Shown here: one piece after another, positions 846 to 16,311 of the stretch
Position numbering within the stretch: position 1 is the stretch's first letter
How the letters are laid out: each line of letters begins with the position of its first letter
Source of the DNA: Candidatus Bathyarchaeia archaeon
GTDB taxonomy: Archaea; Thermoproteota; Bathyarchaeia; Bathyarchaeales; Bathycorpusculaceae
Length of the DNA: 16,311 nt
Reading direction: 5' to 3'
Assembly: GCA_050012255.1 (NCBI GenBank)
Contig: JBEKHN010000028.1
Location: forward strand, 1-16,311
Notes under the pieces: model-generated
Seen by the model: only the letters and a program-made list of their open reading frames with translations
The model's database searches: none
What the model was told of the DNA's origin: nothing
Made by a program: the position numbers and the translations under genes

Positions 846-973
846 GTTTCCTCCCGTTCCTTCAGTCCTGGTCAAACCATTTACATCCAAATAGTACAAT
901 GGAGCTCCTAAGATATAGGCATCAGCTTTATCCAAAATCTCATTCAGTTCTCTAGGTGTCTCATGACGCGCGC

Positions 974-998: not shown

Positions 999-1005
999 GG
1001 GCAAA

Positions 1006-1038: not shown

Positions 1039-1364
1039 AACTCATGGAGTTCTTATTGGTGAAAAGTTTTTAAACTTTCGTAGCGTAATATTCTTAATAG
1101 CAAGTATTGTTTCGTGGAGATTGGTGTATGCCTTCATTGAAAAAGAAAAATGTTCAAAAGAAGAAGAAACATTCGGATAAAGTTGGGAAATAACGCAGAT
1201 TTCATATTTTGTGTTCATGCTGGTCTTTGTCGTTCATCTGCTGCACCGTCAACGAGGTTAACCTATTCAGAAAACGGAAGATAGAGTCCTAAAATAGCAA
1301 GATAACATAGAAATGAGACTTAGATTGGCCGTCTGCCTAGTTGAATAAATGCGGCGTTGTCAAT

Positions 1365-2474: not shown

Positions 2475-2530
2475 CCGCGGTAATCTGCCAAAGTTTATGT
2501 TCAAAATCTAACTTCTACCCGTTCCTTTTA

Positions 2531-2578
2531 GAAAAACTTATATTGTGAGGCTGTTTTTCATTGTGACGCAAAAGGAGG
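2531..2578 (+). promoter_or_regulatory. Putative BRE/TATA box and RBS of the thermosome gene
   Basis: gaaaaacttatat at 2531-2543; aggagg at 2573-2578 upstream of the TTG start at 2591. Confidence 0.55.
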
Positions 2579-2590
2579 TTTGTTTAAGGT

Positions 2591-4243
2591 TTGTCAACAC
2601 AATCAGCTGGTGGTGTTCCGGTTCTAGTGTTGAAAGAAGGCTCTAGTCGTTCTAGAGGGCGAGAAGCTCTGCACACAAACATTGAAGCTGCTAGAATAGT
2701 GGCTGAGACTGTGAAGAGTTCCCTCGGACCAAAGGGCATGGACAAGATGCTCGTGGACAGTTTTGGCGACGTTACCATAACAAGCGACGGACGGACAATT
2801 TTGGACGAGATGGATATTCAGCATCCAGCGGCAAAAATGATGCTAGAAGTCGCGAAAACCCAGGACAACGAAGCAGGCGATGGAACAACAACCGCGGTCA
2901 TAATATCCGGCGAACTGCTCAACAAGGCTCAAGAGCTGGTTGAAAGAAGTGTTCATCCAACGATAATAATCGACGGATACAAGAAAGCTTCGGACAAAGC
3001 ACTGGAAGTTCTGGAAAAGATCGCTATTTCGATAGACCCGAGCTCCACAGATTACCCGAAGAAGGTTGCGATGACCTCGATGGCAAGCAAGCTTGTGGCG
3101 GAGCACAGAGAGTATCTGGCTGACTTGACGGTTAAAGCGATCTTGGCTGTGGCAGAGAAGGACGGTGACAAGTATAAGGCGGATGTCGACGACGTGAAAG
3201 TCGAGAAGAAACCTGGCGAGTCGACAAGGGAAACGAAGCTTATTCAAGGGATAGTCCTTGACAAGGAAATCGCTCATTCAGGTATGCCTAAGCGCGTCGA
3301 AAAGGCCAAGATAGCTCTGCTTGACTGCCCGCTCGAGATCGAGAAGACGGAGTTTGACGCAAAGATCAACATTGAAAGCCCGGAGCAGATGGATGGCTTT
3401 CTCAAGCAGGAGGAGGACATGCTGCGCGACATGGCTGAAAAGATTGCGAAGACTGGTGCCAACGTTGTTCTGTGCGAGAAAGGCATCGACGACATGGTCC
3501 AGCACTTCCTTGCCAGAAAAGGGATACTTGCGGTTCGAAGGAACAAAAAGTCAGACATGGAGAAATTGGCCAAGGCTACTGGAGGAAAAATAGTGACCAA
3601 CCTTGACGGCATGACTTCGGCAGACCTGGGCTATGCTGCTCTGGTCGAAGAACGCAAGATAGGCGACGACAAAATGACCTTCATAGAAGGATGCAAGCAT
3701 CCCAAGGCCGTTACCATACTGATAAGGGGTGGAACCCAACGCATCGTGGACGAAGCAGAGCGGTCAGTGCACGACGCTTTGTGCGTGGTCAGAGACGTGG
3801 TTGAAGAGCCAAAGATCGTTGCGGGAGGAGGAGCCCCAGAACTAGAAGTTTCACGCATGCTCAAGAAATACGCGGAAACTCTGCCAGGAAGAGAACAGCT
3901 TGCAGTCAAAGCCTTCGCAGAGGCTCTTGAAGCCGTGCCAATCACACTGGCCGAAAACGCAGGGCTGGACCCGATCGACATAATATCTGACCTCAGAGCA
4001 CGACATGAAAAAGGCGAAACGTGGGCGGGCATAGAAGTGAACAACGGAAAAACACAAGACATGGCCAAAGCAGGAGTCTATGAACCCTTGGCAGTCAAGA
4101 AACAAATAGTGAAGTCAGCAACGGAAGCTTCTACGATGATACTGAAGATCGACGACGTAATCGCTTCTGGAAAAATGAAAGCTTCCCCAACACCTCCAGG
4201 AGGCCCAGGCGGCGCTGGGTACCCAGGCATGGGGGAGTACTAG
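2591..4243 (+). CDS. ths: Thermosome (group II chaperonin) subunit
   Basis: [29 protein letters not shown] motifs and a Gly/Pro/Met-rich C-terminal tail. Alpha versus beta subunit not resolved. Confidence 0.97.
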
Positions 4244-4246
4244 AAA

Positions 4247-4504
4247 ACGTCTGAGACAAAACGGATCACGATCGGACCGCCAAAGCTCACCCGTTTCGAG
4301 AAGGCAAGAATAGTGGGGGCTAGGGCCCTGCAAATATCTATGGGTGCACCCATACTTGTCGACGTCTCAGAGGGCTTTTCAGGTCCAATAGACATAGCGC
4401 TGAAGGAACTCGGCGCTGGCCTCCTGCCGATGACTGTAAGACGAACGTTGCCCGACAACACTTTTCAGGATATTCCGCTGAAGTGGCTGTTGGAAGAGCG
4501 TTAG
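4247..4504 (+). CDS. rpoK: DNA-directed RNA polymerase subunit K (Rpo6)
   Basis: The frame of ORF 4313..4504 extends upstream to give (M)[34 protein letters not shown]...PIDIALKEL...PMTVRR. The conserved TRFEKAR motif lies before the GTG at 4313, so the apparent start is ACG at 4247. Confidence 0.93.
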
Positions 4505-4508
4505 AAAC

Positions 4509-5057
4509 TCATTTTTCTCTTTCTGGTTCTTCCAAAATCTGTTTTGCCGCGTTCAGCGTCTTTCTGATTCTCGTCCAGTGTGCGCCCTGCCAGTATATCT
4601 GGCCGCAGTTCGGGCATTTCCAGAACTCTTTGTAATGGTCAAAAGTACTTCTTTCAACCTTGCCCTCAGCCTGCTGTCTGGACACAAGCTTCACTGTTGA
4701 GTTGCATTTTGGACATCTGGATGACGCCATGTCTATTTCCAGTCTGACATCGTACCTCTTGGCAAGCTCCGCCAGTTTTTCTTCTCCAGTCAGTCCTTCC
4801 AGGTAGAAAGCGTCGATTCCTCTGGCATTGGCTCGTTGATAAAGTTCAAAGTCCCTCGTCAGCAGGATTCTTTTCTCCTTTTTCGCTATCATTAGAAGTT
4901 GTGGGTCGTCCAAGCTGCTCGAGTACTTCACGTCCTGTCCCAGCATGCGAAGCCAACGCGTCAGTTTTCCAAGCATGCCGTCGGCGACGAACCTCAAATG
5001 GTCACTGTCTCCGAATGACTCTGCCGCTTCCCGCTTTGGCAATAATTTCGCCTTCAT
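4509..5057 (-). CDS. Mut7-C RNase domain protein (PIN-like plus Zn ribbon)
   Basis: FVADGMLGKLTRWLRMLG, ILLTRD, RCPKCN, CPNCGQIYWQGAHW. Start is uncertain because it overlaps the end of pyrC. Confidence 0.88.
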   Translation of the reverse strand: MKAKLLPKREAAESFGDSDHLRFVADGMLGKLTRWLRMLGQDVKYSSSLDDPQLLMIAKKEKRILLTRDFELYQRANARGIDAFYLEGLTGEEKLAELAKRYDVRLEIDMASSRCPKCNSTVKLVSRQQAEGKVERSTFDHYKEFWKCPNCGQIYWQGAHWTRIRKTLNAAKQILEEPEREK

Positions 5058-6342
5058 CCATGATCAGCCGTCCGCCAACGAATGTTTTTGCGGGTTTTCC
5101 CTCGACCTCGCGTCCATCAAAAGGAGAAAACTTGGCCTTAGACAGAAAGTTGGATGAATCAATCCTGAACTTTTTGCGTAGGTCCACAACGGTCAAGTCG
5201 GCGTTGTTTCCTTCTCTCAAGTATCCTTTGCCCTTCAGGTTGAAGATCTCAGCGGGCTTCTCCGACATGAGCCTCGCCACATCACCAATCGACATTCGCC
5301 CTCGTTTGACTTGGGTCAGCAGGAGCGGAAGAGTTGTCTCTAGCCCCGGTATGCCAACCTTGACGTCCCAAACGGTATCAGCCTCCTTTTCTCCGATGGT
5401 GTGAGGAGCGTGGTCTGAGGCTACGATGTCGACCCAACCGTTTCTAACGCCCTCCCATAACGCTTCAGCGTGCTGTTTTTCTCGAACGGGCGGCATAGTC
5501 ACACCCAACGTTCCCGCCCTCTTCAAGTCATCAGCAGTCAGAAGCAGGTGGTGCGGGGTTACTTCGCAAGATATCAACATTCCAGACTTCTTTCCAGCGG
5601 CAATGGCTCTCAAACCATTCTGCGTGCTGACGTGGCAGAAATGCACGGGGAAGTTGCCCTGCTTGACCATGTCCAGAACACGTGTTGCAGCTCTCAGCTC
5701 CACGTTTTCCGAATGAGCCTTGAGGAAAGCGGCAACATCATTCTGTCTACGGCGTTGTAGCTCACCCTCACCTCTCTTCAACATCTGCTCGTCCTCCGCG
5801 TGAACAGAAGTGGAAACTTTAAGCTTGCCGACAGCCTTGAACGCTTCCAGCATGGCTTCATCATCGTTCACATCCAACCCGCCGACCTGATTAGCCATGA
5901 AAAGCTTGAAACCCACAGCACCTTCTCGCACAATTCCCTCTATCTCCCCAGCGTCTCCCGGAAATTCAGAGCGGAAGCCAACGTCCACCAGAATCCTTGC
6001 CTCCGCAATCTTCATTCGATTCCTCAAAGCCTCAGCACTCATCGTCACTGGATCGTTGTTAGGCATGTCAAGAACAGTCGTCATTCCACCCGCAGCGGCA
6101 GCGGCTGTGCCTGAGAGAAAGTCTTCTTTGTACGACTTACCCTCATCTCGAAGATGCACATGAGCGTCGATCAGCCCAGGGAGAACCAGATGATTCTCCA
6201 AGTCGAATCTTGCGTCAGCGGTAGGCATGCTCGATTCTCTGCCTATCTTAAAAATCCTGCCTTCGTTGAAGGCGATGCTGCAGTCTACTATTGCCTGCTT
6301 AAAGTAGGCTTTGGCATTTGCCAAGACGGAATCGACTATCAA
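5002..6342 (-). CDS. pyrC: Dihydroorotase-family cyclic amidohydrolase
   Basis: PGLIDAHVHLRD, AAAGGMTTVLDMPN, HFCHVS, EVTPHHL, SDHAPH, PGLET, FSPFDG. Confidence 0.87.
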   Translation of the reverse strand: MIVDSVLANAKAYFKQAIVDCSIAFNEGRIFKIGRESSMPTADARFDLENHLVLPGLIDAHVHLRDEGKSYKEDFLSGTAAAAAGGMTTVLDMPNNDPVTMSAEALRNRMKIAEARILVDVGFRSEFPGDAGEIEGIVREGAVGFKLFMANQVGGLDVNDDEAMLEAFKAVGKLKVSTSVHAEDEQMLKRGEGELQRRRQNDVAAFLKAHSENVELRAATRVLDMVKQGNFPVHFCHVSTQNGLRAIAAGKKSGMLISCEVTPHHLLLTADDLKRAGTLGVTMPPVREKQHAEALWEGVRNGWVDIVASDHAPHTIGEKEADTVWDVKVGIPGLETTLPLLLTQVKRGRMSIGDVARLMSEKPAEIFNLKGKGYLREGNNADLTVVDLRKKFRIDSSNFLSKAKFSPFDGREVEGKPAKTFVGGRLIMDEGEIIAKAGSGRVIRRQ

Positions 6343-6410
6343 GTCTCGTAGTGCTCCTCATCACTGAAATAACGTGAAATGGACATGTAAAAAGCTTATT
6401 CACTCTGCGA

Positions 6411-6443
6411 TGGAGATATCCCCCGTAAACTCCCCTTTTTTCT
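6411..6443 (+). repeat. Dispersed repeat, copy 2 (left boundary of the Cas1 module)
   Basis: tggagatatcccccgtaaactccccttttttct; the minus strand of the core reads GGGGATATCTCC. Confidence 0.8.
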
Positions 6444-6477
6444 CTCATTCATGCATCCAGCGCACGCTTCTTGGGTT

Positions 6478-6495
6478 TGGGATAAAACTTTACCC
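6478..6495 (+). repeat. Left copy of an 18-bp inverted repeat, inside a local hairpin
   Basis: TGGGATAAAACTTTACCC is the exact reverse complement of 15738-15755. It is enclosed by ttgggtttggg (6471-6481) and cccaaacccaa (6496-6506). Confidence 0.85.
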
Positions 6496-6558
6496 CCCAA
6501 ACCCAAACCCAAACACACAAACGAATAATAATCACATAGTTTATACTTCTAATGAGGC

Positions 6559-6879
6559 TTGTCTGTGAGCCTAGGTAGAAGAACTTTAATTATGTTCTTC
6601 GTTGTGAGTCTTTTTTTCATAGCTATTGGATTGGAATTATATTTTTTCACTCAGACAGTCAATGGCGCTAGCATTGGCACAGCTTGGATTAATGGAACCA
6701 AGGTTTCCAACATATGGATGGCCTCTCCTCCTTTTGTATTTCGTCCGTACTTGGATCTAGGCTTTAGGTTATTTGGATTTGGAACAGTTATTTTGGTTGC
6801 TACTTTCTTTGAGAGCCTAGTAGGAAAGAGACCAACCTCAGTTGTTGCAAAAATCCACAGGCGCCTGAAACTTCGGTAG
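6559..6879 (+). CDS. Small membrane protein (two hydrophobic segments, basic C-terminus)
   Basis: Hydrophobic runs LIMFFVVSLFFIAIGLELYFF and LFGFGTVILVATFF; TATA-like tttata at ~6540. Confidence 0.6.
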   Translation: MSVSLGRRTLIMFFVVSLFFIAIGLELYFFTQTVNGASIGTAWINGTKVSNIWMASPPFVFRPYLDLGFRLFGFGTVILVATFFESLVGKRPTSVVAKIHRRLKLR

Positions 6880-6941
6880 AAAGATTCGCTAGAAGATTGT
6901 TCTATCTGCGCATATTAACCACATTTCAGCCTGAGAGAGCA

Positions 6942-7142
6942 CTAAATGAGAAGTCCTCTACGTTTTAAAATTTCAATCCAAAATGAATCATCAGGATATT
7001 TCCACTTGAAAAATTCAGCAACAAACTTTTTGATTTCAAAACTGTTTCGTTCCATGCCTATCCAGTACAGCAGTCGGTGTCCAGTGAACAAGTCTAAGTC
7101 TATGACGCTTTCTTTTTCAAAAGCATAATCGCCGTGTCTCAC
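6942..7142 (-). CDS. Hypothetical protein, 66 aa
   Basis: Last gene of a tightly coupled minus-strand operon. Its GTG start overlaps the upstream TAG stop (TAGTG), with a gaggag RBS upstream. Confidence 0.6.
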   Translation of the reverse strand: MRHGDYAFEKESVIDLDLFTGHRLLYWIGMERNSFEIKKFVAEFFKWKYPDDSFWIEILKRRGLLI

Positions 7143-7318
7143 TATGTTGTCTCCTCTTTTGTTGGAATTGGCTCAAGAATGAAAGTGTAGCTTTTCTTTC
7201 CATCAAGAACCTTCCTCAATTCTTCAAGGTTTGCGATGTATCGCGCTTTCTTAACTACAACACTAACCTTCTTGCCGTCCTTGCTTAAACTCAAATAGCC
7301 ACAGTCTTTCCAAACCAT
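7142..7318 (-). CDS. Hypothetical protein, 58 aa (missed by the ORF track)
   Basis: Manual translation MVWKDCGYLSLSKDGKKVSVVVKKARYIANLEELRKVLDGKKSYTFILEPIPTKEETT*. It fills the gap between neighbours, starts 2 nt after the upstream stop and has an aggagg RBS. Confidence 0.7.
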   Translation of the reverse strand: MVWKDCGYLSLSKDGKKVSVVVKKARYIANLEELRKVLDGKKSYTFILEPIPTKEETT

Positions 7319-7320
7319 TG

Positions 7321-7821
7321 TTATCGCCTCCTTTCCTTCCTGAGAAAATTGAGTATGAAACTGCGATTTCCCAGATACTTCTTAATCATTTTGTCTTGAA
7401 GGCCATAGCGAAAAACAATTTTTGGAATAGGCTTCTTACCTTTTCTTGACATCCTTACGGTTGAAGTTTCCTTGATGCACTGCATCCTAACATATCTTCG
7501 GAGATTCTCGTTTCCGCTTTCCAAAGCAACCCAGTTCATCACATGAACGTTTCTGCCCCAATCGACTGGACTATTAAAAACCACATGATAACTTGCCTTC
7601 CTGAGTCTGAAAAAGACTTTGCGTTTCTGTGTCACAACATAGTTTTTGTGGCTTGATTCCGAGATTATGAATCCTTCCAGTTTGAAAAAGAAGGTTGCTC
7701 TGTAAGACCAGAGTTTTACTTCGTCTAATGAAGGGGCATCATCCCAGTCTAATCTAATGGTTTCTGTATCCCAGTCTCCAAAGACCAGAGAAGTGTTAAC
7801 TTTCAACTCTTGGTCTCGCAT
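7321..7821 (-). CDS. Putative minimal archaeo-eukaryotic primase (AEP)-like protein
   Basis: hhDxD motif (IRLDWDD), SYHVVF (motif II-like His) and TVRMSRKG (hRh). No clear motif III Asp. ATG at 7821 preferred over TTG at 7839. Confidence 0.5.
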   Translation of the reverse strand: MRDQELKVNTSLVFGDWDTETIRLDWDDAPSLDEVKLWSYRATFFFKLEGFIISESSHKNYVVTQKRKVFFRLRKASYHVVFNSPVDWGRNVHVMNWVALESGNENLRRYVRMQCIKETSTVRMSRKGKKPIPKIVFRYGLQDKMIKKYLGNRSFILNFLRKERRR

Positions 7822-8260
7822 CCCAGTGTCCCCTTTCAAGAAATTCTTCTGGAGATTCTAACAAAGCCTCAGAACTTATGGTAAGAAATTGTTTTTTGGG
7901 CGGGTGCTTAGAAACAATCTGCATGGCCTCATACAGTTGTCTTCCGCTTCCAAACATCTGTATCCTTTTAGATTTTCCGTGTTCTGAACCGTAACAGGCA
8001 ATCTGTTTGGCGAATATTCCAATTTTTGGCGCTGGCGTGTATGTCGTTTGTCTTCTATATTCTCTGGGTATGTGCTTCTGAACGTGAGGTCTTGCTCGTT
8101 TATGTTTGGCTTGTCTTACGTAATGGAGCAGTTTGGTGCGCCTCATACCTATGTGTCTCTGTCTCAATTTCTGCTGGATTTTGTTTGCAGAGTAGCCTTT
8201 GCGAGCGTAACTTCTGATTGCGTTGATTTGCCGTTTTGAAACACCTTTAGTTTTTGCCAC
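7796..8260 (-). CDS. Very basic protein with an HTH-like N-terminus, probably nucleic-acid binding
   Basis: K/R-rich; IRSYARKGYSANKIQQKLRQ resembles an HTH; aggtgg RBS just after the ATPase stop. Confidence 0.65.
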   Translation of the reverse strand: MAKTKGVSKRQINAIRSYARKGYSANKIQQKLRQRHIGMRRTKLLHYVRQAKHKRARPHVQKHIPREYRRQTTYTPAPKIGIFAKQIACYGSEHGKSKRIQMFGSGRQLYEAMQIVSKHPPKKQFLTISSEALLESPEEFLERGHWDARPRVES

Positions 8261-8270
8261 TGTCCCACCT

Positions 8271-9221
8271 TCATCCTAAAGCATTAAATGAGAAGTTCAT
8301 CCATCTAGCAAGAAACAAAACATGGTCAACGTCTTTCTGTTCAATTTCATCTCTACTGTCTATCATAGCTGAAGCGTAACACAGTTTCTGAAGATTCTTC
8401 TGAACTCGAAAGCCATAACTATCGGAAAACTGTGCGAGCTTAAGACTGACCTGTTCCAGTTGGCTGAGAAGCTTAGGCTTGGGTTCGTACTCTTTTGTTT
8501 CCGTGTAACTGAGGAATTGTATTTGAGGTATTCGTATATTGTATTTTTTTGCAGGAGTGTTTCCGAAGAGAAAATTGAATATTCTTGCAGTGTTGTCGAT
8601 GGGATATTCATAGCTGAAAGGAACCATTCGACTTAGGAAACCCATTCTTTTAAGGTCATTGTAGAGGCTTGACTGTTGCGGTGAAGAATATGTGAGGCTT
8701 TCTCTTGTTATCGCGCTTATTAAACCGACTTTTACGGGAGTGGGATATTCGTATGTTTTGTATGGTGTTGCTACTCTTCTTGTTCCTTCATCAACCATCG
8801 TCTTCATGGTTTGAAGTAAGGGTTTTTTGGTGACTGAGGCTTTTTCCACACAGTTGAGAATATCGGGAATCAGTACGAATCTTATTTGGCCGTTTTGTGC
8901 TCTGGGAAATATGGTGTCGGTGAAAGTTTTTGAGGTTACTTCGTTTGCGTAGTAGATGAAGGGATAGTTGGCGAAGAGGTCTATTGTGCTTGTCTTTCCA
9001 GATTCAGGTTTAGCTATGAGCATGAGGCTTGAAGGTCGATAACCGTCTATTCTATCGGTTACGAATGCGGTTTGTATTGTGAGTGCAGTTATGTCAATTA
9101 GTGGCTGTATGTTGACTAGGTTTTCACCTTTTCGAGCTTGGCCTCCTGAAAGTAGTGACTGAGAGTATATACCCTCCCTAGGGGAAGGTAATGGTGGCAT
9201 GTTGTCGCTTTTCATTTTCAT
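8271..9221 (-). CDS. MCM/MoxR-like AAA+ ATPase, putative helicase lacking the MCM N-terminal domain
   Basis: Walker A AKPESGKTS, Walker B-like FVLIPD, MKTMVDEG, sensor-1-like ISAIT, arginine finger FLSRM and lid FRVQKNLQKLCYASAM...KDVDHVL. Start may be downstream (e.g. 9200). Confidence 0.75.
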   Translation of the reverse strand: MKMKSDNMPPLPSPREGIYSQSLLSGGQARKGENLVNIQPLIDITALTIQTAFVTDRIDGYRPSSLMLIAKPESGKTSTIDLFANYPFIYYANEVTSKTFTDTIFPRAQNGQIRFVLIPDILNCVEKASVTKKPLLQTMKTMVDEGTRRVATPYKTYEYPTPVKVGLISAITRESLTYSSPQQSSLYNDLKRMGFLSRMVPFSYEYPIDNTARIFNFLFGNTPAKKYNIRIPQIQFLSYTETKEYEPKPKLLSQLEQVSLKLAQFSDSYGFRVQKNLQKLCYASAMIDSRDEIEQKDVDHVLFLARWMNFSFNALG

Positions 9222-9239
9222 TCACTTCGAGAAAAGGGT

Positions 9240-9278
9240 TATATCGCGGTATAGATATATCACTTTTAGAAGTGATAT
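9240..9278. promoter_or_regulatory. Palindromic operator-like sites between the divergent ATPase and wHTH-cas1 units
   Basis: atatcactt-ttag-aagtgatat (9257-9278, perfect 9-bp arms) and tatatcgcggtata (9240-9253, 12/14 palindrome). Confidence 0.55.
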
Positions 9279-9282
9279 CGTA

Positions 9283-9906
9283 ATGTCACGCAAAAAGGCC
9301 AAGAAAAGTAATACGCCTCAAATTGGAATATTCATCGACAAGAAAAGTGCAAACTACAATCGGTTGATTCTTGAGATACTATTCTCGCAACAAATGGAAG
9401 CATGGCAAATAGCAGAAGCCATACTTAGAAAAAAAGACCCAAATATTAGCAAGGAAATCAAGGAAGTGAGGCGTTACCACACACAGAAAATCTACAGCGT
9501 CATCCAAAGGAAAAATGGACGGCTTGAAGACCTGAGAAACAAGGGTTACATAGGAGAAGAAAACGGAGTATGGAACCTTACAAAAAAGGGTTTCATCGCA
9601 TTAAGCATAGAGAAGCCTGATTTGGTAAATAATGAAATTCAAAAAAACAAAAACCTTCTTTTGGAATCATTCCAAAAAAGAATTACTTCGATGCCAAATG
9701 GCATGGCAAAAGTGGCTCTGGGTATTCATATTGACTTCTCTGAGATTAAACCATACTTTGAGAAAGTAGACAAATTATCTTTATTTCACATGTTTATTGA
9801 AGAGGCTAAGACTCTGCTTTCAGAAGGAATAGAATTGGACAGAATAAGCGAAAGTGATTTTGAGGCTATAGTAATGAATAAGCTGTCTTTTTCTAAGAAG
9901 GCATGA
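9283..9906 (+). CDS. Winged-helix DNA-binding protein
   Basis: LILEILF...AWQIAEAI...RLEDLRNKGYI...WNLTKKG wing pattern. Likely start is ATG 9283; the stop overlaps the cas1 start (ATGA). Confidence 0.7.
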   Translation: MSRKKAKKSNTPQIGIFIDKKSANYNRLILEILFSQQMEAWQIAEAILRKKDPNISKEIKEVRRYHTQKIYSVIQRKNGRLEDLRNKGYIGEENGVWNLTKKGFIALSIEKPDLVNNEIQKNKNLLLESFQKRITSMPNGMAKVALGIHIDFSEIKPYFEKVDKLSLFHMFIEEAKTLLSEGIELDRISESDFEAIVMNKLSFSKKA

Positions 9907-10946
9907 TTATGGTTCAAGGTTCTAAAACTCAGAAGATAGTCTTAGACAGTCAAGGTTCTTATTTGGGAATGGAGAAAGGATGCTTCACAGTCAAGGATAG
10001 AGAAGGCAACGTTCAACGCTTCCCATTATTCGAAAATACGTTGGGTTCCGTTGTTTTGAAAAGCGGTAATGCCGTTTCTACTGGGGCTTTAGCTTCTCTG
10101 GGATTCTGGGATATTGACGTACTGATAATGACTCAGAGAGGGAATCCTGTTGCTATGCTCAGAAGCCTTGATGATTCCAGTCATGTTGAAACCAGAATTG
10201 CCCAGTATGAGTCTCTGAAGAATGTCAAGTTCTCTGAAATAGCTAAACAGTTTGTCTTATCAAAAATAGAAGCTCAGAATCAAGTGCTGTCGAAGTACGG
10301 GCTGAGAAGGTTAGATTATTCGCATATCGAGCAGGTTAAAGGTCTTAAAGAAACTGACTCTAGAACCCTGAGGAATAGGCTGACAACGATAGAAAGCCAC
10401 TGTTCTAGGCTGTACTTTGACCAAATCTTTCAAATGTTCAATGAACCATTAAGACCAGACGGAAGAAACGGTTTCAAGGCTTATGACGGAATAAATAACC
10501 TCTTCAACCTAGCATATGAGGTTCTCTCTTGGAAAGTGCACATAGCTCTAGTAAGAGCTAGGCTTGAACCGTTCATGGGATACCTGCACAGCTTAGCATG
10601 GAGTAAACCGTCTCTGGTTTGCGATTTTCAAGAGCTCTATCGCTACTTAATGGATGATTACGTTATTCAGTATGCTAGAGGTCTGAAGGCTAAGGATTTT
10701 ACGTTGAAGACTGAAGATTTTTCCAGTAAGAAGAAGGGCAAGAGAGAATACCTTAGCGATTTCAAGACTAGAGATTTTATGAAAAGCCTTAACGAGTATT
10801 TTCTTTCTGAAGTGAAGATACCGAGATACAGAATGGGCAAGAAGCAAGAGTTGGAGACTTTGATTAGTGAAGAGGCTATGCTGTTTGCGAAGTACCTGAG
10901 AAATGAAAGACAAACATGGATTCCAAGAATACCGAGCCTAGCTTGA
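9903..10946 (+). CDS. cas1: Solo Cas1 endonuclease/integrase (casposase-like)
   Basis: GSYLGMEKG, VSTGAL, RIAQY, IESHCSRLYF (catalytic E), DGINNLFNLAYEVL, GYLH (catalytic H), SLVCDFQELYR. No cas2, other cas gene or array in the window. Confidence 0.95.
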   Translation: MIMVQGSKTQKIVLDSQGSYLGMEKGCFTVKDREGNVQRFPLFENTLGSVVLKSGNAVSTGALASLGFWDIDVLIMTQRGNPVAMLRSLDDSSHVETRIAQYESLKNVKFSEIAKQFVLSKIEAQNQVLSKYGLRRLDYSHIEQVKGLKETDSRTLRNRLTTIESHCSRLYFDQIFQMFNEPLRPDGRNGFKAYDGINNLFNLAYEVLSWKVHIALVRARLEPFMGYLHSLAWSKPSLVCDFQELYRYLMDDYVIQYARGLKAKDFTLKTEDFSSKKKGKREYLSDFKTRDFMKSLNEYFLSEVKIPRYRMGKKQELETLISEEAMLFAKYLRNERQTWIPRIPSLA

Positions 10947-10957
10947 TGGAGAAAAAC

Positions 10958-10987
10958 GGAGATATCTCCCGAACACCCACATTTTCT
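10958..10987 (+). repeat. Dispersed repeat, copy 3 (11 nt after the cas1 stop; right boundary of the Cas1 module)
   Basis: ggagatatctcccgaacacccacattttct, with the perfect palindrome GGAGATATCTCC at 10958-10969. Confidence 0.8.
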
Positions 10988-11048
10988 GTGGCTTTTCGTT
11001 ATCTGCTATACCACTAAAGTATAGAGGCAGCCCTTCACATAAAGGTTC

Positions 11049-11294
11049 CTAATGTCGTCTTCTACGTGACAGCTTCCTATGCTTCTTAGGTGTCATGTTC
11101 ACCACGATAATGAAATAGGCCACCATCAGGAAGAAAAAGAACACCAAAGGAGAGATCTGAGAGAATACACCTTTAACAATGAGATATGCTAGATTGCTTA
11201 TCAGGATCAGTCCAAGTCCGAGAAATAGGCTGCTGATTAGGTTTCTGTTCGCGCGCGCGCGCGAACGATTCAGGTGTGAGTGAAAAAGAAGCAC
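11049..11294 (-). CDS. Possible small two-TM membrane protein with a basic tail
   Basis: LISSLFLGLGLILISNLAYLIV and PLVFFFFLMVAYFIIVV followed by KKHRKLSRRRRH. The start is uncertain and a (GC)6 tract lies in the 5' part. Confidence 0.45.
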   Translation of the reverse strand: MLLFHSHLNRSRARANRNLISSLFLGLGLILISNLAYLIVKGVFSQISPLVFFFFLMVAYFIIVVNMTPKKHRKLSRRRRH

Positions 11295-11603
11295 GATTCA
11301 TAACATCAAAGAAAGCCAACACTTTCACCTGTCACTCAAGTTAGGTCCGTTCCAGTATTTATCATTCATTTGCGCCCTTGAAGGAAAAGACGTCAAATCG
11401 AAATAGGCATAGCGCGCGCGAAATACGAAACTCTCTCCATCTCGTCCCGGTAAGGGTTCGTTCAGTCTTTCAACGAAGTGTCGGGGCACTAAAAAGCGCG
11501 CGCCCTTCACTAACTCTTCCGCCCGTTCATCATGGTCAATAATAAGGTATCTTCCAATGCTTTGCTCTTTGGCAACTTGTAATACACTCCTCCGAGGCCT
11601 AGT

Positions 11604-11663
11604 CCGGAAAACCTTATATCCATCCACCACCACAATATATGTATGAATTACATGTATCAGGTG
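11604..11663 (+). promoter_or_regulatory. Putative BRE/TATA and RBS for the ubiquitin-like operon
   Basis: ccggaaaaccttatat at 11604-11619; aggtg at 11659-11663 before ATG 11672; tacatgt occurs twice (11649, 11669) and may be an operator. Confidence 0.45.
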
Positions 11664-11671
11664 TTTTCTAC

Positions 11672-11935
11672 ATGTCAGTCGAGAAACTCTCAAGAATAGT
11701 TGAATTGCTAAGAAAAGAGGCAAAGGTATCGCCATCTCAAATCGCTGAGACGATAGGATCCGATAGAAGGACCGTAGACAAGATGCTTAATATTGCTGAG
11801 AACCTGAGCATTATATCCTGTGAGAGGCTGGAGATGGCGGGAAGAACATATAAAACATGCGAACTGAACCCAGATTTCAAGAGAATATTACAGAAGAGGA
11901 GTGAGCACGATGAGCCAACCAGAAAAAACGAATGA
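11672..11935 (+). CDS. Small winged-HTH regulator leading the operon
   Basis: RIVELLRKEAKVSPSQIAETIGSDRRTVDKMLNIAENLSII. Likely start is ATG 11672; overlaps the Ubl gene. Confidence 0.8.
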   Translation: MSVEKLSRIVELLRKEAKVSPSQIAETIGSDRRTVDKMLNIAENLSIISCERLEMAGRTYKTCELNPDFKRILQKRSEHDEPTRKNE

Positions 11936-12185
11936 ACCCATGATTACGATAACCATAAGAACAGTGGATGGAGAAACCTGGACCAACGAATTTAACATTC
12001 ACGAGCCAATTAAAAGCATCCTGCAGAAATCGCTGGCACACTTTGGGATACAACCTGCTCCCGGAATTGTGTTTCATTTTCTGTACGAAGGCAGATTGTT
12101 GGATGAAAGCAAAACGCTTGAGCAAGAAGCGGTAAAAACAGGATCGACGCTAGTCTTCGGAACGGAAGCACAAGTTGGACAGTAG
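11910..12185 (+). CDS. Ubiquitin-like beta-grasp modifier (BilA-like)
   Basis: ITITIRTVDG...FLYEGRLLDESKTLEQEAVKTGSTL parallels ubiquitin [23 protein letters not shown]; ends ...AQVGQ. Confidence 0.88.
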   Translation: MSQPEKTNEPMITITIRTVDGETWTNEFNIHEPIKSILQKSLAHFGIQPAPGIVFHFLYEGRLLDESKTLEQEAVKTGSTLVFGTEAQVGQ

Positions 12186-12212
12186 ATGACACAACAACTC
12201 TAGTGAATGGAA

Positions 12213-13022
12213 ATGACCATCGCAGTCTGCATATGGGTTCCGGAAGGAATCGTGCTTGCATCTGAAAGCCGTCAAGTCTACAAGAACCAAAAGGGCAATT
12301 ACAGGACTTCATCTGATTTAGCTCAGAAAGTTTTCCAGTTGTCCGCCCGTATTGGCGGAATTACATGTGGCAGAGCTTATCTTTCCAAGAAAGGCGTACT
12401 GAGTCTAATCGAGGAATTCAAAGCCTCAGCTAAGGCTTCAGGAAGCAACCTTGATGAAATTGCAGTCAAAGACATGGCGGACAAGGTCGGAGCTTTTCTT
12501 CAAAGCAAATGGCAAGAGCAGACAGCAGATGGCGCGGAAGGAGGAGCTTCATTGTTGAGCCTTGTTATAGGGGGATATGAAAATGGAATAAACCGTATCT
12601 TCGAGGTTTCACTTCCTGGGCCATCGATAGTGGAAATAAGCACTTTGCAGGAGCTGGGGGCGGCCTGGAGAGGTCAAACCGACGTTGTAACCCGGCTAAT
12701 AAAAGGGTTCGATCCAAGAATAAGCAGTCTTTCATGGTTTCAACCAAACTATACGCAAGAACTGGAAAAGCTGAGGTATATGATAGGTTTTGACGCCATG
12801 ACCTTGCAGGATGCAATTGACTTTGCCGTCTTTCTGATAAGGACAACGATTGATATGCAAAGGTTTTCCGATGGAATATCGCTAGATCCAGGCGACATAC
12901 CTGGCACAGGTGGCCCAATTGACATAGCAATTATAAGACCAAATGAAGGTTTCGCGTGGGTGCAGAGAAAGGAGCTAAGAGGCGAAACACTATACAAACG
13001 AATGCGCATTGGCGAAAGCTGA
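12213..13022 (+). CDS. Proteasome-beta-like Ntn hydrolase (Thr1 nucleophile)
   Basis: (M)TIAVCIWVPEGIVLASESR...AQKVFQL...GGITCG gives Thr1, acidic residue 17, R19, and Lys33- and Gly47-like positions; C-terminal QDAIDFAVFLI...TGGPIDIAII. ATG at 12213 exposes Thr after Met removal. Confidence 0.85.
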   Translation: MTIAVCIWVPEGIVLASESRQVYKNQKGNYRTSSDLAQKVFQLSARIGGITCGRAYLSKKGVLSLIEEFKASAKASGSNLDEIAVKDMADKVGAFLQSKWQEQTADGAEGGASLLSLVIGGYENGINRIFEVSLPGPSIVEISTLQELGAAWRGQTDVVTRLIKGFDPRISSLSWFQPNYTQELEKLRYMIGFDAMTLQDAIDFAVFLIRTTIDMQRFSDGISLDPGDIPGTGGPIDIAIIRPNEGFAWVQRKELRGETLYKRMRIGES

Positions 13023-13061
13023 ATGGGCCATTCAAGTATTGCTGCTGTGCAAGCAGAGTGA

Positions 13062-13490
13062 ATGATGGAAGCTTCAAGAATGGATGATTCGGCTTCGCTG
13101 GCCTTTCTTGACGACCAGATCAAGAAACTTAAGTCAATTTCCGAGCACCTGCTCATCCATAGCATTGATGTTAGTCAGTGGGATATTTACGTGACTCTCA
13201 CTCGCGCCAAAGACGGAAAAGAACACACAATTCGCTTAAGATGTGACAATGGCTATCCTATTACTGCGCCGAGCGTCACGTTCGTAAGTCCTGTGGACTT
13301 CAAAATGGAAGGAGTGCAGTTTTGGCCCGATGACGGCGAACGTGCATTCAAAAGAACGTCTAGCCCTCCGTTTATTTGCATTCCTGGAACAAGAGAGTAC
13401 TATGAGCATCATCGGGAAGTTCAGGTTGCTCCGCGCGATGTGTCCTTAACCAAAATAGTCGCCGAGCTAGTAACGATGATGAACCGGTAG
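13062..13490 (+). CDS. E2/UBC-fold conjugating enzyme, CEHH type (type II BilB-like)
   Basis: GYPITAPSVTF (UBC YPxxxP) and FICIPGTREYYEHH (catalytic Cys with the C-E-H-H pattern). Confidence 0.82.
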   Translation: MMEASRMDDSASLAFLDDQIKKLKSISEHLLIHSIDVSQWDIYVTLTRAKDGKEHTIRLRCDNGYPITAPSVTFVSPVDFKMEGVQFWPDDGERAFKRTSSPPFICIPGTREYYEHHREVQVAPRDVSLTKIVAELVTMMNR

Positions 13491-13503
13491 ATGTGGGGTA
13501 AGA

Positions 13504-14055
13504 TTGAGAGAGAATAGATTGGGAACGAAGCCTAGCTACATCGGCGTCTTTCTCATTTCCAAAGGAGTTCTTGATGAGACCTTGGCTTACCTTCGTAATC
13601 ATGGAAGAAGCAATTATGAAGGGTTCATGTGCTGGAGCGGCATTATAGTAAATGATTATGACGCTCTAGTCAAAAGCTGTATCTATCCTCGATTGTCTGA
13701 ACTCTCTGATTACGGATTTCTACATGCAGAAATAAAGCTCAAAAGTGTTTTTGACATAGGTCAGCAAGTTTATGATAAGCAAGAATTTCTGCTTGCTCAA
13801 CTGCACACGCACGCTTTTGAAGCTTTCCACTCTTATGTAGATGACAGATTTCCTATCAGTCACAAGCCAGGATTCATTTCAATCGTCGTGCCGTTCTTTG
13901 CGAGAAGGAAGTTTTACAACAGTAAAACGCTGATTAACTGCAGTGTTAACGAGTATGTGGGAAGAGGAAACTGGCATCCGCTGAAACCAGACGAGGTGAG
14001 GAAGAGGGTTAAGATAGTTGGGGAGGAGCACAGGAACAGACATGAGTATAAATGA
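13504..14055 (+). CDS. JAB/JAMM metallo-isopeptidase (BilC-like)
   Basis: NYEG catalytic Glu and QLHTHAFEAFHSYVDD (HxH...SxxD). Start uncertain. Confidence 0.88.
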   Translation: MRENRLGTKPSYIGVFLISKGVLDETLAYLRNHGRSNYEGFMCWSGIIVNDYDALVKSCIYPRLSELSDYGFLHAEIKLKSVFDIGQQVYDKQEFLLAQLHTHAFEAFHSYVDDRFPISHKPGFISIVVPFFARRKFYNSKTLINCSVNEYVGRGNWHPLKPDEVRKRVKIVGEEHRNRHEYK

Positions 14056-15598
14056 CAGGACACAGAAACTAGTTAATAGGTTTCTGCCAGGAAAAAGTGA
14101 AGGCTTTTTTAGATTTGATGGGTTCAAAATAGGCGTCGCCATTGAACCTGCTCTGGCTGAAACCTTCAACGGGCAAGTAATGATGTTTACCTGCTTGAAC
14201 CTCTTGTCTAGATTTACGAATAGAATGCTCCTTGGCAGAATCCCCGAAGTTCCTACATTGTTAGAGCTTCGCGGGCTGAGGGGGAATCTAAAGGCTAGGC
14301 TTCTTGCAAGCGTTGCCCATATCAATCCGGATATTAAGATTGATGGCTTGGGCAAGGAACAGCTGGTTGATATACTCATAACCATAGGAAAAACGGAATA
14401 TAACTCCTCATTCAAGATAGCCATAAATTCTGACGGGTGGACAGCGAAGCTAGAAGAAGGAGTGGATGCCAGTTTAGACTACGTTAGCGGGAACGCAAAC
14501 CCCATAGGGGCACAAATTGCCTCCTGTTTTGCTTCAGCCGAAGTCTTCAAGCATCTTCTCAGGTCCATGGGTAGTACAAGCTACGCTGTTCAGCAGCCAG
14601 TGGGTTCCGTTTCCTTTTCAGCTCTTGACTATTCGATCAATTCAGGCACATCTCAAAATCCGGAACTTCCATCAGAGCTAAATCTTGAGGAAACTGTTTT
14701 GGTGGGTGCCGGAGCCGTTGGAAGCAGCTTTGTGAATACATTAGGTTGTCTGAACAATGTTTCCGGGCGACTTATAATCCTTGATTTTGATGTTGTTGAT
14801 GTCACCAACTTGAATAGGTACCTTATTGCGGGAATACGCGATGTAGGAAAGGCAAAAGTGAAGGTTGCCACGGATTTTCTTGCGGGAAGCGGGATACAGG
14901 CGGTTCCAGTACATAAAAGCTATGAGAGCTACGTTAAGGAGGATAGGCCTGACAAGACGTTTGACACAGTCGTATCTACAGTAGATGACAACGCAGCTAG
15001 ACAGCATATGCAATCAGACCTGCCGAGGCAGATTTTGCATGGAGCAACGCATGAACAGAGCTGCGTCGTTTCAAGACACGATTTCCTGCATGATGCATGC
15101 TTAGGCTGCCTATTCTATATGAAATCAATGACATATGCAGAGAGAATCTACATTGAAACCGGAATTCCCTTAGATGAGGTAGAGAAAACGCTTTCGCTTA
15201 ACGGTTCCTTCAATGATAAACACTTAGCTATAATGATGAGAGAAAGAGGTATTAACCCTGAGAGGTTTTCCAAGTTTATTGGTCAACCGTTCAAGGATGT
15301 CTACGCCAAGGAGATATGCGGCGTCTTCGGTTTTAATGTGGGTGCAAAAGCTGAAGCTGCCACAGTATCATTCGTGTCAGCTTTGCCAGGCATATTGCTT
15401 GCTGGCGAAATAATCAAGGACAGAATCTCAGAACTGCGTAAGTACAGGCTGAACAACTATCTTCAGATGAGCCTTTTTTCGCTTAAAGCTAATTGGCCAA
15501 TTATTAGAAAGAAGGACCCTCGCTGTTCTTGTCTTTGTTATGAACAAATCATGATAGACCGTTATAAGCAAAAATGGCTGAGAAGCAGTGGCTCATAG
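14042..15598 (+). CDS. E1/ThiF-family activating enzyme with a long N-terminal domain (BilD-like)
   Basis: VLVGAGAVGS, DFDVVDVTNLNRY, GKAKV, STVDDNAAR, ACLGC and CSCLC Zn ligands, candidate catalytic Cys in EICG, SFVSALPG. Likely start is ATG 14042. Confidence 0.92.
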   Translation: MSINDRTQKLVNRFLPGKSEGFFRFDGFKIGVAIEPALAETFNGQVMMFTCLNLLSRFTNRMLLGRIPEVPTLLELRGLRGNLKARLLASVAHINPDIKIDGLGKEQLVDILITIGKTEYNSSFKIAINSDGWTAKLEEGVDASLDYVSGNANPIGAQIASCFASAEVFKHLLRSMGSTSYAVQQPVGSVSFSALDYSINSGTSQNPELPSELNLEETVLVGAGAVGSSFVNTLGCLNNVSGRLIILDFDVVDVTNLNRYLIAGIRDVGKAKVKVATDFLAGSGIQAVPVHKSYESYVKEDRPDKTFDTVVSTVDDNAARQHMQSDLPRQILHGATHEQSCVVSRHDFLHDACLGCLFYMKSMTYAERIYIETGIPLDEVEKTLSLNGSFNDKHLAIMMRERGINPERFSKFIGQPFKDVYAKEICGVFGFNVGAKAEAATVSFVSALPGILLAGEIIKDRISELRKYRLNNYLQMSLFSLKANWPIIRKKDPRCSCLCYEQIMIDRYKQKWLRSSGS

Positions 15599-15737
15599 AG
15601 GCGTGTAGGGAATTCAATGAAAAAAGAACCTTGCAAAATGCACCTAGCGCGCGGGTGGAGTGAGACGATTCCCTCATTGTCCAAGGTCTAGATGACGCTT
15701 TCGAGAAGCGCGCGCTATATAAGATTGCGTTGGGTGA

Positions 15738-15755
15738 GGGTAAAGTTTTATCCCA
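15738..15755 (-). repeat. Right copy of the 18-bp inverted repeat, inside a local hairpin
   Basis: gggtaaagttttatccca is the reverse complement of 6478-6495. It is enclosed by tgcgttg (15726-15732) and caacgca (15760-15766). Confidence 0.85.
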
Positions 15756-15802
15756 TATACAACGCACACGCACACGGAGTGAGTGTGAGAGTGAAGGGCG
15801 CG

Positions 15803-16084
15803 CTAGTGTTTACACTTAGAAAGAATACGATTGACTTCCTCTAAGCTGACATCTCTAATCAGAATCTTCTTCTGCTTTGAAGTAAAACCAGAAATAAATT
15901 CAACTTTCCTCTTGAAAATCCTTGAAAGTTCCTTTATCAACTCTCTATCAACCTTGCCTTTTACTGGAGACTCTTTACAATGCACCACAAGTTCATCATC
16001 TTCGACCTCAATTTTGAGGTCTCTCGAGTCTGGCTTAACGTACACATTCAGGACTACTCCTTGGTCCGTTTTCAACAGCTTCAT
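15803..16084 (-). CDS. DUF167/YggU-family protein
   Basis: VVLNVYVKPDS...ESPVKGKVDRELIKELSRIF...ISGFTSKQKKILI. Likely start is ATG 16084. Confidence 0.85.
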   Translation of the reverse strand: MKLLKTDQGVVLNVYVKPDSRDLKIEVEDDELVVHCKESPVKGKVDRELIKELSRIFKRKVEFISGFTSKQKKILIRDVSLEEVNRILSKCKH

Positions 16085-16245
16085 TGTTGACACAGCTTTG
16101 AAGTTTCTCCTTTCTAAATTTGAAGGAAAACTAGAGTATATAAAATAGCGCGCATGCCTGTTCCGAAAATGGTTAAAAATGGTTTTAATTCGCCTTTTGC
16201 GATTTAGAGGCATTTTTGGGCTTCGCGTCTGTTTTCGTGCTTCTT

Positions 16246-16311
16246 TCAGTGCCCACGCTTCTCGAACTGTGCCGGCGGCCCGAAGGTGTTGGCCTGTGCG
16301 CTGTGAACAGC
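16246..16311 (-). CDS. Possible 3' end of a gene entering from the right edge
   Basis: Open frame AVHSAQANTFGPPAQFEKRGH* to the edge with host-like GC; too short to identify. Confidence 0.3.
   Translation of the reverse strand, partial: AVHSAQANTFGPPAQFEKRGH

Follow-up and report, generated by a model that had tools for sequence, protein, structure and literature searches.

A stand-alone proteasome-family hydrolase gene inside a Bil-like ubiquitin-like conjugation cassette from a Bathyarchaeia archaeon

Bil-type operons, orphan proteasome homologues and the archaeal cassette

Type II Bil operons, antiviral systems of bacteria described by Chambers et al. (10.1101/2023.09.26.559546), encode a single-beta-grasp ubiquitin-like protein (Ubl; BilA), a CEHH-type E2 (BilB), a JAB deubiquitinase (DUB; BilC) and a BilD-type E1 in this order and no E3, and BilA carries a conserved Gly followed by up to nine residues, where it is cut by BilC. 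Separately, 22 new proteasome homologues were described by Fuchs, Alva and Lupas in 2021, including the 'proteasome homologs with multiple insertions' (PMI), which bear insertions after H1/H2 and between H3/H4 (PMC8665760). Here we describe a stretch of 16,311 nucleotides (nt) from a Candidatus Bathyarchaeia archaeon (contig JBEKHN010000028.1, positions 1 to 16,311, assembly GCA_050012255.1; hereafter the window), in which a gene for a proteasome-family Thr1 N-terminal nucleophile (Ntn) hydrolase, located at 12213..13022 (+) and referred to below as the Ntn, stands between a Ubl gene and an E2 gene. These genes belong to a six-gene cassette, all on the + strand, in the order winged helix-turn-helix protein (wHTH), Ubl, Ntn, E2, JAB and E1, which we read as a BilABCD-like system of Type II that has the wHTH and Ntn genes in addition. 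In the published accounts of Bil, Bub and CBASS-type Ubl operons that we consulted, including Iyer et al. (2006), we came upon no proteasome homologue placed inside such an operon, while supplementary operon tables, such as the Type II Bil list of Chambers et al., or the data set of Fuchs et al. may hold cases.

The E1 and the JAB of the cassette directly match the solved E. aridi proteins. The E1 (14018..15598, +), whose gene overlaps the end of the JAB gene, is BilD-like and matched the E. aridi E1 (BilD; PDB 8tyz_A) at 1.1e-40 over residues 70-520, the PADLOC BilD model at 1.6e-21 and Pfam ThiF at 7.2e-19. The JAB/JAMM metallopeptidase (13504..14055, +), a BilC-like DUB, matched PADLOC BilC at 9.9e-11 and the DUB (BilC) of PDB 8tyx_B at 2.9e-11, and its catalytic residues are intact, E39, H101, H103, S110 and D113 being invariant in 8/8 sequences. 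The Ubl (11901..12185, +; likely start ATG 11940, MITITIRT...) is a single-domain, BilA-like protein that scores just above the Pfam ubiquitin threshold (1.2e-5; 25.5 bits, cut-off 25.4). Its C-terminal GTEAQVG, invariant in 6/6 sequences, is followed by 0-5 variable residues, a single one in the window, and this tail agrees with that described for Type II BilA (10.1101/2023.09.26.559546). The putative, BilB-like E2 (13062..13490, +) comprises 142 amino acids (aa) and is shorter than its Type II counterpart; it carries a CEHH-like motif in which C106, E112 and H117 are invariant in 6/6 sequences. Its sequence gave a sub-threshold match to Pfam Metal_CEHH (E 0.029) and a weak phmmer match to the ubiquitin-conjugating enzyme (UBC) 3we5 (E 0.074). 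The top three Foldseek matches of its low-confidence model (predicted local distance difference test, pLDDT, 62.5) were 8tz0_C, 8tyz_C and 8tz0_D (E 0.02-0.03, probability 0.98-0.99), which are E2 chains of a solved bacterial E1-E2-Ubl complex. No PADLOC model matched the Ubl, the E2 or the Ntn. In contrast to Type II BilABCD, the cassette has an archaeal host and six genes instead of four, with a wHTH gene at its head and a Thr peptidase gene between the counterparts of bilA and bilB, and it is known here from its genes alone.

We surmise, at a probability of roughly 0.38, that the Ntn is the proteolytic arm of the cassette and acts on Ubl-tagged proteins. A PMI-type proteasome homologue would have been captured once by a Bil-type Ubl-conjugation defence system, in which the JAB would mature the Ubl at GTEAQVG and E1 and E2 would link it to target proteins, presumably structural proteins of viruses by analogy with Bil; the Thr1 peptidase would then cleave or degrade the tagged proteins ('tag and cleave'), and the JAB would recycle the Ubl. 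The initial annotation of the locus had proposed a stand-alone beta-type hydrolase in a Ubl operon that degrades Ubl-tagged targets, serves as a Ubl-activated effector or replaces an E3 by transpeptidation. The stand-alone, probably active beta-type Ntn in a Ubl/E1/E2 operon held up, none of the three roles is confirmed, and the annotation had overlooked the Bil-type defence cassette in an accessory island, the large family that lies mostly outside Ubl operons, and the conserved wHTH.

The hydrolase and its relatives

The open frame of the Ntn spans 12207-13022 (+) and encodes 271 aa with the N-terminus Met-Glu-Met-Thr, while a second ATG at 12213 gives Met-Thr. Among homologues of at least 240 aa, 194/240 begin with Met or Val followed immediately by Thr or Ser (96 MT, 83 MS, 15 VT), and in an exhaustive search with the Ntn its residue 3 was the partner of residue 1 for most hits. 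Because so many homologues begin with a start codon and Thr or Ser, the gene likely starts at 12213, with ATG 12207 as the alternative, and would encode no propeptide. Removal of the initiator Met, which we assume for the Ntn, would by itself expose an N-terminal Thr nucleophile. The family assignment draws on Pfam, the homologues, a structural model and an alignment with PsmB. PF00227 (Proteasome) is the only Pfam family on the protein (E 5.6e-6; 26.6 bits, cut-off 22.4; residues 6-138), and a profile-profile alignment with the PsmB of the same genome pairs T4 with Thr1, E20 with Asp17, R22 with Arg19, K41 with Lys33 and G55 with Gly47, the hhalign match ending at residue 143. The corresponding codons lie at 12216-12218 (Thr1), 12264-12266 (Glu17-equivalent), 12327-12329 (Lys33-equivalent) and 12369-12371 (Gly47-equivalent), all on the + strand. 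Across the 87 rows of a family alignment, K41 and G55 have no exception (87/87), position 20 holds Asp in 66 rows and Glu in the other 21, and position 4 is occupied by Thr (45 rows) or Ser (35) or is gapped (7). The Ntn is apparently an active, stand-alone hydrolase of the proteasome family with a complete Thr1/Glu17/Lys33/Gly47 site, and the Met-Thr start without a real propeptide and the proteasome-like active-site residues noted initially are both borne out.

The profile scores also set the Ntn apart from housekeeping PsmB. Against the archaeal beta-subunit equivalog TIGR03634 (NCBIfam) it reached 19.2 bits at a cut-off of 224, compared with 234.8 and 221.5 bits for the matched segments of the PsmB proteins of its own genome. 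Two PsmB and one PsmA are encoded in this genome, all on contigs other than that of the Ntn, and the Ntn is therefore not the housekeeping subunit; the grouping with PsmB that would have overturned the initial annotation does not occur. At 269-271 aa it is also longer than a normal beta subunit, as had been proposed, the open frames of the two PsmB genes having 216 and 226 aa. The genome contains two more divergent proteasome-family open reading frames (ORFs; 243 and 245 aa), at C36:2707-3168 (-) and C2:86950-87477 (+), and the profile of the Ntn family does not match either of them. Searches outside the family returned little: no proteasome-family chain was found at E <= 10 in a PDB sequence search with the Ntn, which gave six weak unrelated matches only, and in PHROGs just 27 residues matched, to a family without known function.

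The AlphaFold2 model of the Ntn, built on 38 homologues (mean pLDDT 85.6; predicted template modelling score, pTM, 0.86), predicts the alpha-beta-beta-alpha Ntn sandwich of the proteasome type with both helix pairs of that fold kept, and in Foldseek it matched at least 500 PDB chains at E <= 0.001, with 20S subunits leading. VIA-align placed T4 on residue 1 of mature proteasome-family chains. The best match was the designed Anbu 5loy_A (Z 19.2, root-mean-square deviation 2.9, 192 aligned), followed by eukaryotic and archaeal 20S beta subunits (Z 16.4-18.8), the Anbu and beta-subunit rows being a tie under the rule of the tool; actinobacterial subunits scored about 15, BPH 13.8 and 11.8, HslV 12.7, and Connectase 12.6 and 11.8. 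Among the relatives that the initial annotation had listed for comparison, Anbu and the 20S beta subunits are thus structurally closest (Z 16.4-19.2), sharing fold and catalytic residues with the Ntn, whereas Connectase, HslV and BPH are far (Z 11.8-13.8). The 20S beta subunits differ in having an alpha partner and in lacking the extra H3/H4 segment described below, and the Ntn scores far under the PsmB cut-off. HslV and BPH are compact, without insertions or C-terminal elements, and HslV has HslU as its partner, while the Ntn has a 40-aa insert and its cassette holds no AAA+ gene. Anbu-type operons have ATP-grasp, alpha-E and transglutaminase partners, and none of these families was found among the genes of the window (Pfam). 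Moreover, the long C-terminal coiled-coil H5 of Anbu (PMC8665760) is not seen in the Ntn model, where residues 260-271 are disordered.

The model also bears on the suggestion that the Ntn might be a transpeptidase standing in for a missing E3. Connectase (DUF2121) is a stand-alone proteasome homologue with a Met-Thr start that acts as a sequence-specific ligase (PMC8665760, PMC7980362), and an enzyme of this kind might ligate the Ubl or its targets; the invariant GTEAQVG tail of the Ubl speaks in favour of it. However, helices H1/H2 (64-77, 87-107), absent from Connectase, are retained in the Ntn model, which has a 5-residue loop between strands 23-26 and 32-35, where Connectase has a two-helix S3/S4 insertion (PMC8665760), so that this helical lid is missing from the Ntn. 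The Z scores to Connectase (12.6 and 11.8) compare with 17-19 for Anbu and beta subunits, and no MtrA-type substrate context is present. Ligation chemistry is already supplied by E1 and E2, and since no E3 takes part in Type I and II Bil systems as described, the E2 being proposed to recognise targets directly (PMC11601596), no E3 is 'missing' from the cassette. A Connectase-like role, weakened in both its premises, is in our judgement highly improbable.

Between strand 151-156 and the long helix 200-219, the model shows three short extra helices (159-166, 170-174 and 180-187). They fall in a family-signature segment at residues 157-199 (GQTDVVTRLIKGFDPR...LRYMIGFDAMT; 12675..12803, +), recognised by the secondary structure of the model and by conserved residues and located outside both the Pfam Proteasome (6-138) and the PsmB (to 143) alignments. 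The extra sequence noticed initially near LRYMIGF turns out to be this helical insert. W154, G156, R163, G167, D169, R171 and Y191 rank among the most conserved residues of the whole Ntn family, being conserved in at least 90% both inside and outside the clade of the window's Ntn, and S176 and W177 of the segment are specific to the Bil-linked clade. By mapping the helices of the model onto H3 and H4, we infer that the segment is an H3/H4-type insertion, helices 170-174 and 180-187 lying between 159-166 and 200-219. This position is shared with PMI, and relatives of the Ntn carry the second PMI feature, an insert of ~50 aa after H2. As published, PMI proteins are likewise stand-alone, beta-like and without propeptide, with a Thr/Ser1-Asp17-Lys33-Gly47 site and a wide but patchy spread over bacteria and archaea (PMC8665760). 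By insertion position alone, and compared by the published description, the Ntn family looks like the PMI group. None of the PMI accessions named in PMC8665760 was among ten homologue clusters looked up, which are named solely 'hypothetical protein' or '20S proteasome alpha/beta subunit'. In contrast to the 22 homologue families of that study, PMI included, for which its authors report having found no function-suggesting genomic context (PMC8665760), the Bil-linked clade has one.

The family is large. A word-indexed search gave 883 homologues and an exhaustive search with the Ntn 1274 representative clusters, both at E <= 0.001, with named sources that include Nitrososphaerota, Chloroflexota, Nitrospirota, Patescibacteria/candidate phyla radiation (CPR), Atribacterota and Methanobacteriaceae. 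CPR bacteria, Methanobacteriaceae and Atribacterota have a long form of ~310-340 aa with the additional ~50-aa insert after helix 2. A search for fusions above 475 aa found none, which the search tool rates as weak evidence. There was no tblastn match to the Ntn in phage and plasmid collections, and IMG/VR viral contigs held one distant (29%) relative and no cassette. Nine distant homologues (P0137, P0153, P0168, P0190, P0199, P0203, P0212, P0232 and P0239) are extended at the N-terminus by a hydrophobic, signal-peptide-like stretch of 36-75 aa whose last residue, Gly, immediately precedes the conserved Thr (e.g. ...RG|TVVVG), and they resemble exported proteins that mature at a classical Gly-1/Thr1 autoprocessing site.

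Linkage, family contexts and the surrounding island

Genome loci were taken as the best 80 of 157 confirmed and metagenome loci as the best 80 of 188. Homologues of the HTH, Ubl, E2, JAB and E1 each stand beside the Ntn in 1/80 genome loci, that of an archaeal metagenome-assembled genome (L001); among the metagenome loci, E2, JAB and E1 are found beside it in 6/80, and HTH and Ubl in 5/80. One of these cassettes is identical to the window, being its own sequence (L098), and three are complete (L099, L100, L102); L116 and L117 begin inside the Ntn, and L101 shows HTH-Ubl-Ntn, after which the contig ends. The cassette is present in all loci that have enough flank and an Ntn 56-100% identical to that of the window, and absent from all examined loci with an Ntn of 42% identity or less. 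Its gene order is constant, and outside the six genes nothing is common to the loci, whose flanks are unrelated. The Ubl-Ntn gap is 7-29 nt in four loci, and in L001 the frames as called share 18 nt.

In a maximum-likelihood tree of 87 rows, computed as a quick search without a mixture model and with long-branch joins flagged elsewhere in the tree, a 21-row clade (SH-aLRT 100, stem 0.71) holds all 6 Bil-linked Ntns together with the database proteins P0001-P0015, several of which are identical or near-identical to Bil-linked sequences; within it, all rows with known context are Bil-linked. This single, well-supported clade points to one capture of the Ntn by a Bil-type system. When the window is compared with L099, the ratio of nonsynonymous to synonymous substitution (dN/dS) comes to 0.05 in the Ubl, 0.09 in the E2, 0.18 in the E1, 0.20 in the JAB and 0.26 in the Ntn, values that indicate purifying selection on all five genes. 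Most of the family is unlinked to Ubl genes, as would suit an unrelated passenger gene or a variant housekeeping proteasome subunit. Such an interpretation is strongly disfavoured and the least credible of those considered here, given that gene position and order are kept in every cassette down to 50-57% protein identity, that the genes diverge to a comparable degree, that the Ntn has a dN/dS of 0.26, that the Bil-linked Ntns are monophyletic, and that PsmA and PsmB are encoded elsewhere.

In the phylum, a BilD-like E1 was found in 3/401 genomes, that of the window counted. The two other Bil-like operons consist of Ubl, an E2-sized gene, JAB and E1, with no Ntn; their E1 is just 29% identical to that of the window, and the JAB and Ubl matches are weak. 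By gene content, the Ntn is an addition to a Bil-type operon.

Its location directly after the Ubl gene would also suit a second Ubl-specific peptidase. The precedent is BubE (DUF6527) of Bub operons, which likewise stands beside a JAB in a Ubl/E1/E2 operon; this non-JAB enzyme with a Ser-His dyad cleaves Ubl-GFP and removes Ubl-target conjugates, the Bub JAB mainly maturing the precursor (PMC11601596). By analogy, the JAB of the cassette would mature the precursor and the Ntn would strip the Ubl from its targets, as a negative regulator or for recycling. Amidases that hydrolyse non-peptide amide bonds are found in the Ntn superfamily, which would accommodate such a reaction. BubE and the Ntn differ in their nucleophiles, a Ser-His dyad against an N-terminal Thr, and are unrelated in fold and chemistry, with no evident homology (PF00227 being the only Pfam family on the Ntn); deconjugase activity has been shown for BubE (PMC11601596), whereas the role of the Ntn is a prediction. 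In Type II systems, BilC already matures and binds the Ubl (Chambers et al., 10.1101/2023.09.26.559546), and the JAB is intact here. The Ubl of L100 ends exactly at Gly and needs no maturation, so that the JAB is presumably kept there for deconjugation. The Ntn family as a whole, moreover, has no Ubl partner. Taken together, we consider a deconjugating Ntn possible, if rather unlikely.

The wider family was surveyed through 142 genes located at most two positions from an Ntn homologue in 50 bacterial or other loci, three ORFs running off locus ends having been dropped. The Pfam families LexA_DNA_bind (9), TPR (8, all Atribacterota-type) and N6_N4 DNA methylase (7) head the tally. Many bacterial family members adjoin restriction-modification or abortive-infection (Abi)-type genes (N6_N4_Mtase 7/142), anecdotal evidence that would fit a toxic abortive-infection effector under Ubl control, kept inactive until switched on by its own conjugation to the Ubl or release from it and then cleaving host or viral proteins broadly. 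Two further points agree with this idea: the E1-E2 enzyme Cap2 of Type II CBASS conjugates the system's own enzyme and thereby primes it (Chambers et al., 10.1101/2023.09.26.559546), and the Bil-linked clade, on its long stem (0.71), has clade-specific surface changes (Asp17->Glu, S176, W177). The Ntn, however, gives no sign of a regulated or inhibited state, having neither a propeptide nor an inhibitor gene in its cassette, and we regard this role as improbable.

Genes for a type I S subunit, RloB, an HNH protein and a MutH-like nuclease stand beside single homologues each and belong with the restriction-modification or Abi-type neighbours above. At eight Atribacterota-type loci (L014, L017, L019, L023, L025, L036, L044 and L060), the homologue is preceded on its own strand, at a distance of 28-29 nt, by the gene of a 390-397-aa TPR protein. 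At Methanobacteriaceae-type loci (L022, L027, L028 and 25 more), the long form lies beside three DNA glycosylases (Adenine_glyco, Pur_DNA_glyco and OGG/HhH-GPD), in a conserved neighbourhood that also includes a GAF protein, HisF-like genes and a conserved 171-aa protein of no known family, which suggests a vertically inherited and possibly DNA-damage-related context, unlike that of the Bil cassette.

A LexA-type wHTH gene is found directly upstream of a distant Ntn homologue in 10/80 genome loci, all CPR-type (L008, L011, L031, L033, L034, L035, L041, L051, L061 and L062), with a gap of at most 17 nt or an overlap. These proteins have 124-336 aa, lack the S24 self-cleavage domain and end in a variable tail, and they could be repressors paired with a peptidase acting in trans. 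The small wHTH regulator gene that heads the cassette (11639..11935, +; likely true start ATG 11675, MSVEKL...) gave weak HTH matches only (HTH_11, HTH_24 and CasR/Csa3-type). As called, its frame overlaps that of the Ubl by 35 nt (11901-11935); alignments favour later starts for both (11675 and 11940), and with the later Ubl start the overlap disappears. Homology between the cassette wHTH and the LexA-like proteins was considered and is unsupported (hhalign probability 13%).

It is conceivable in this context that the Ntn is a regulatory protease that cuts the cassette wHTH upon a signal of infection or stress and de-represses the operon, similar to CapP/CapH or ImmA/ImmR. The wHTH, minimal at ~80 aa and without a sensor domain, is kept upstream of the Ubl gene at the head of the cassette in 5/5 related loci reaching that far; the S24-less LexA-type genes directly precede distant Ntns in the 10/80 loci above, LexA_DNA_bind is the commonest Pfam family in the tally (9 of 142), and Bub and CBASS operons are described as often linked to repressor systems (PMC11601596). 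Nevertheless, the Ubl gene stands between the HTH and Ntn genes in all cassettes, the similarity of the cassette HTH to the LexA-like proteins is that of generic wHTH domains, no HTH gene adjoins the closest relatives of the Ntn outside Bil cassettes (Chloroflexota and others), and the upstream gene examined in the two archaeal Bil-like operons without an Ntn matched no HTH family. A regulatory protease is hence, in our view, unlikely.

The cassette is accessory and rare in the phylum, and it lies in a non-syntenic island. The Ntn is found in 0/10 same-genus genomes, and its family in 1/60 relatives, as a distant member (E 3e-12) with no Bil genes in the available 2.6 kb. Synteny with a same-genus genome (95% identity) covers 1278 to about 6510 and then stops. 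At this point lies the left arm (6471..6495) of an inverted repeat, whose right arm (15738..15762) is 140 nt past the E1 stop; the arms have 25 nt each, are 88% complementary and bracket a 9.3-kb non-syntenic island with a solo Cas1 and the cassette. The 17-nt core of the repeat occurs in 27 genome copies (15 forward, 12 reverse), against 0 for a reversed control, often paired a few hundred bases apart. As the motif is dispersed in the genome, its bracketing of the island may be fortuitous, and the repeat could represent the ends of a family resembling miniature inverted-repeat transposable elements or insertion sequences, or a common intergenic motif.

The solo Cas1 gene lies at 9903-10946 (+; Pfam 9.1e-45), its start overlapped by an open frame at 9199-9906 (+). 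Its last ~100 nt and the downstream sequence (about 10830-10978) recur at many same-genus sites with 75-82% identity. The window contains no Cas2 and neither a CRISPR array nor a tRNA gene, which were sought as landmarks of integration, and no PolB was seen in it. The Cas1 region could be a casposon-like or another Cas1-bearing mobile element beside the Bil cassette. The island genes at 8271-9221 (-), 7796-8260 (-), 7321-7839 (-) and 9199-9906 (+) had no match in Pfam, NCBIfam, PADLOC or PHROGs except for a weak RecX-like HTH, and a 316-aa protein of the island carries a Walker-A-like KPESGKTS.

The case for a proteolytic arm

Several observations favour the Ntn as the proteolytic arm of the cassette. 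The chemistry of its family is that of endopeptidases. Its gene is inserted beside the tag gene and not beside the regulator, and since the JAB is catalytically intact in 8/8 sequences, the Ntn should add a function and not replace the DUB. A tag gene adjoining proteasome genes also has a precedent, which supports the same reading: the actinobacterial gene of the Pup tag, pup, immediately precedes prcB-prcA. More generally, a small tag is coupled, genetically or functionally, to a proteasome-family peptidase in the Pup-proteasome cluster as well as in the SAMP and ubiquitin-proteasome systems. Unlike the lone beta-like protein found here, those systems pair a complete alpha/beta 20S particle with an AAA+ unfoldase, and the ligation chemistry of Pup differs. 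A complex prediction of the Ntn (4-262) with the Ubl (13-93) gave a score of 0.00 and a mark of 0.32, without controls, and weighs neither way on binding.

A number of points weigh against the proteolytic arm. As initially noted, the operon encodes neither an alpha subunit nor an ATPase; Pfam, PADLOC and NCBIfam detected among the cassette genes no alpha subunit, AAA+/ATPase, unfoldase or Ubl receptor, so that a chambered enzyme degrading folded, tagged proteins would depend on factors of the host. An H3/H4-type insertion could prevent double-ring assembly, according to Fuchs et al. 2021 (PMC8665760), and the characterised Bil systems are described as working without a protease effector (Chambers et al., 10.1101/2023.09.26.559546). 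The Bub example illustrates that deconjugation can be the task of an additional peptidase in a Ubl operon (PMC11601596), and the cassette wHTH together with the LexA-type wHTH beside distant Ntns fit a regulatory role equally well. ThiF, JAB and ubiquitin families occur in 0/142 of the neighbouring genes tallied in the 50 loci; most family members have no Ubl partner, so the ancestral substrate was not a Ubl conjugate. A sequencing-run search, finally, listed no RNA run that contains the stretch and one DNA run that contains it in full and may be its source.

Taking the proteolytic arm one step further, the whole cassette might be a self-contained, horizontally mobile antiviral 'tag-and-destroy' module of archaea that unites tag, E1, E2, DUB and proteasome-family peptidase in one operon, with neither alpha subunits nor an unfoldase of its own. 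This extension is possible, though on balance doubtful; the accessory, island-borne distribution of the cassette is consistent with a role in virus defence.

Whichever role applies, a large family of orphan proteasome homologues gains its first contextual clue from the Bil-linked clade, and with the cassette the range of Bil systems would come to include archaea and their accessory enzymes a new kind, a Thr-peptidase. If the Ntn cleaves the wHTH, it would define a new class of repressor-protease switch, of which the CPR LexA-like/Ntn pairs would be a second example. If it acts on Ubl conjugates, the cassette offers a five-protein set small enough to reconstitute, in which the coupling of tagging to proteolysis is directly testable. 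And if the 'tag-and-destroy' module is real, it would represent an independent, minimal coupling of Ubl conjugation to proteasome-type proteolysis and provide a functional handle on the PMI-type family, the first one.

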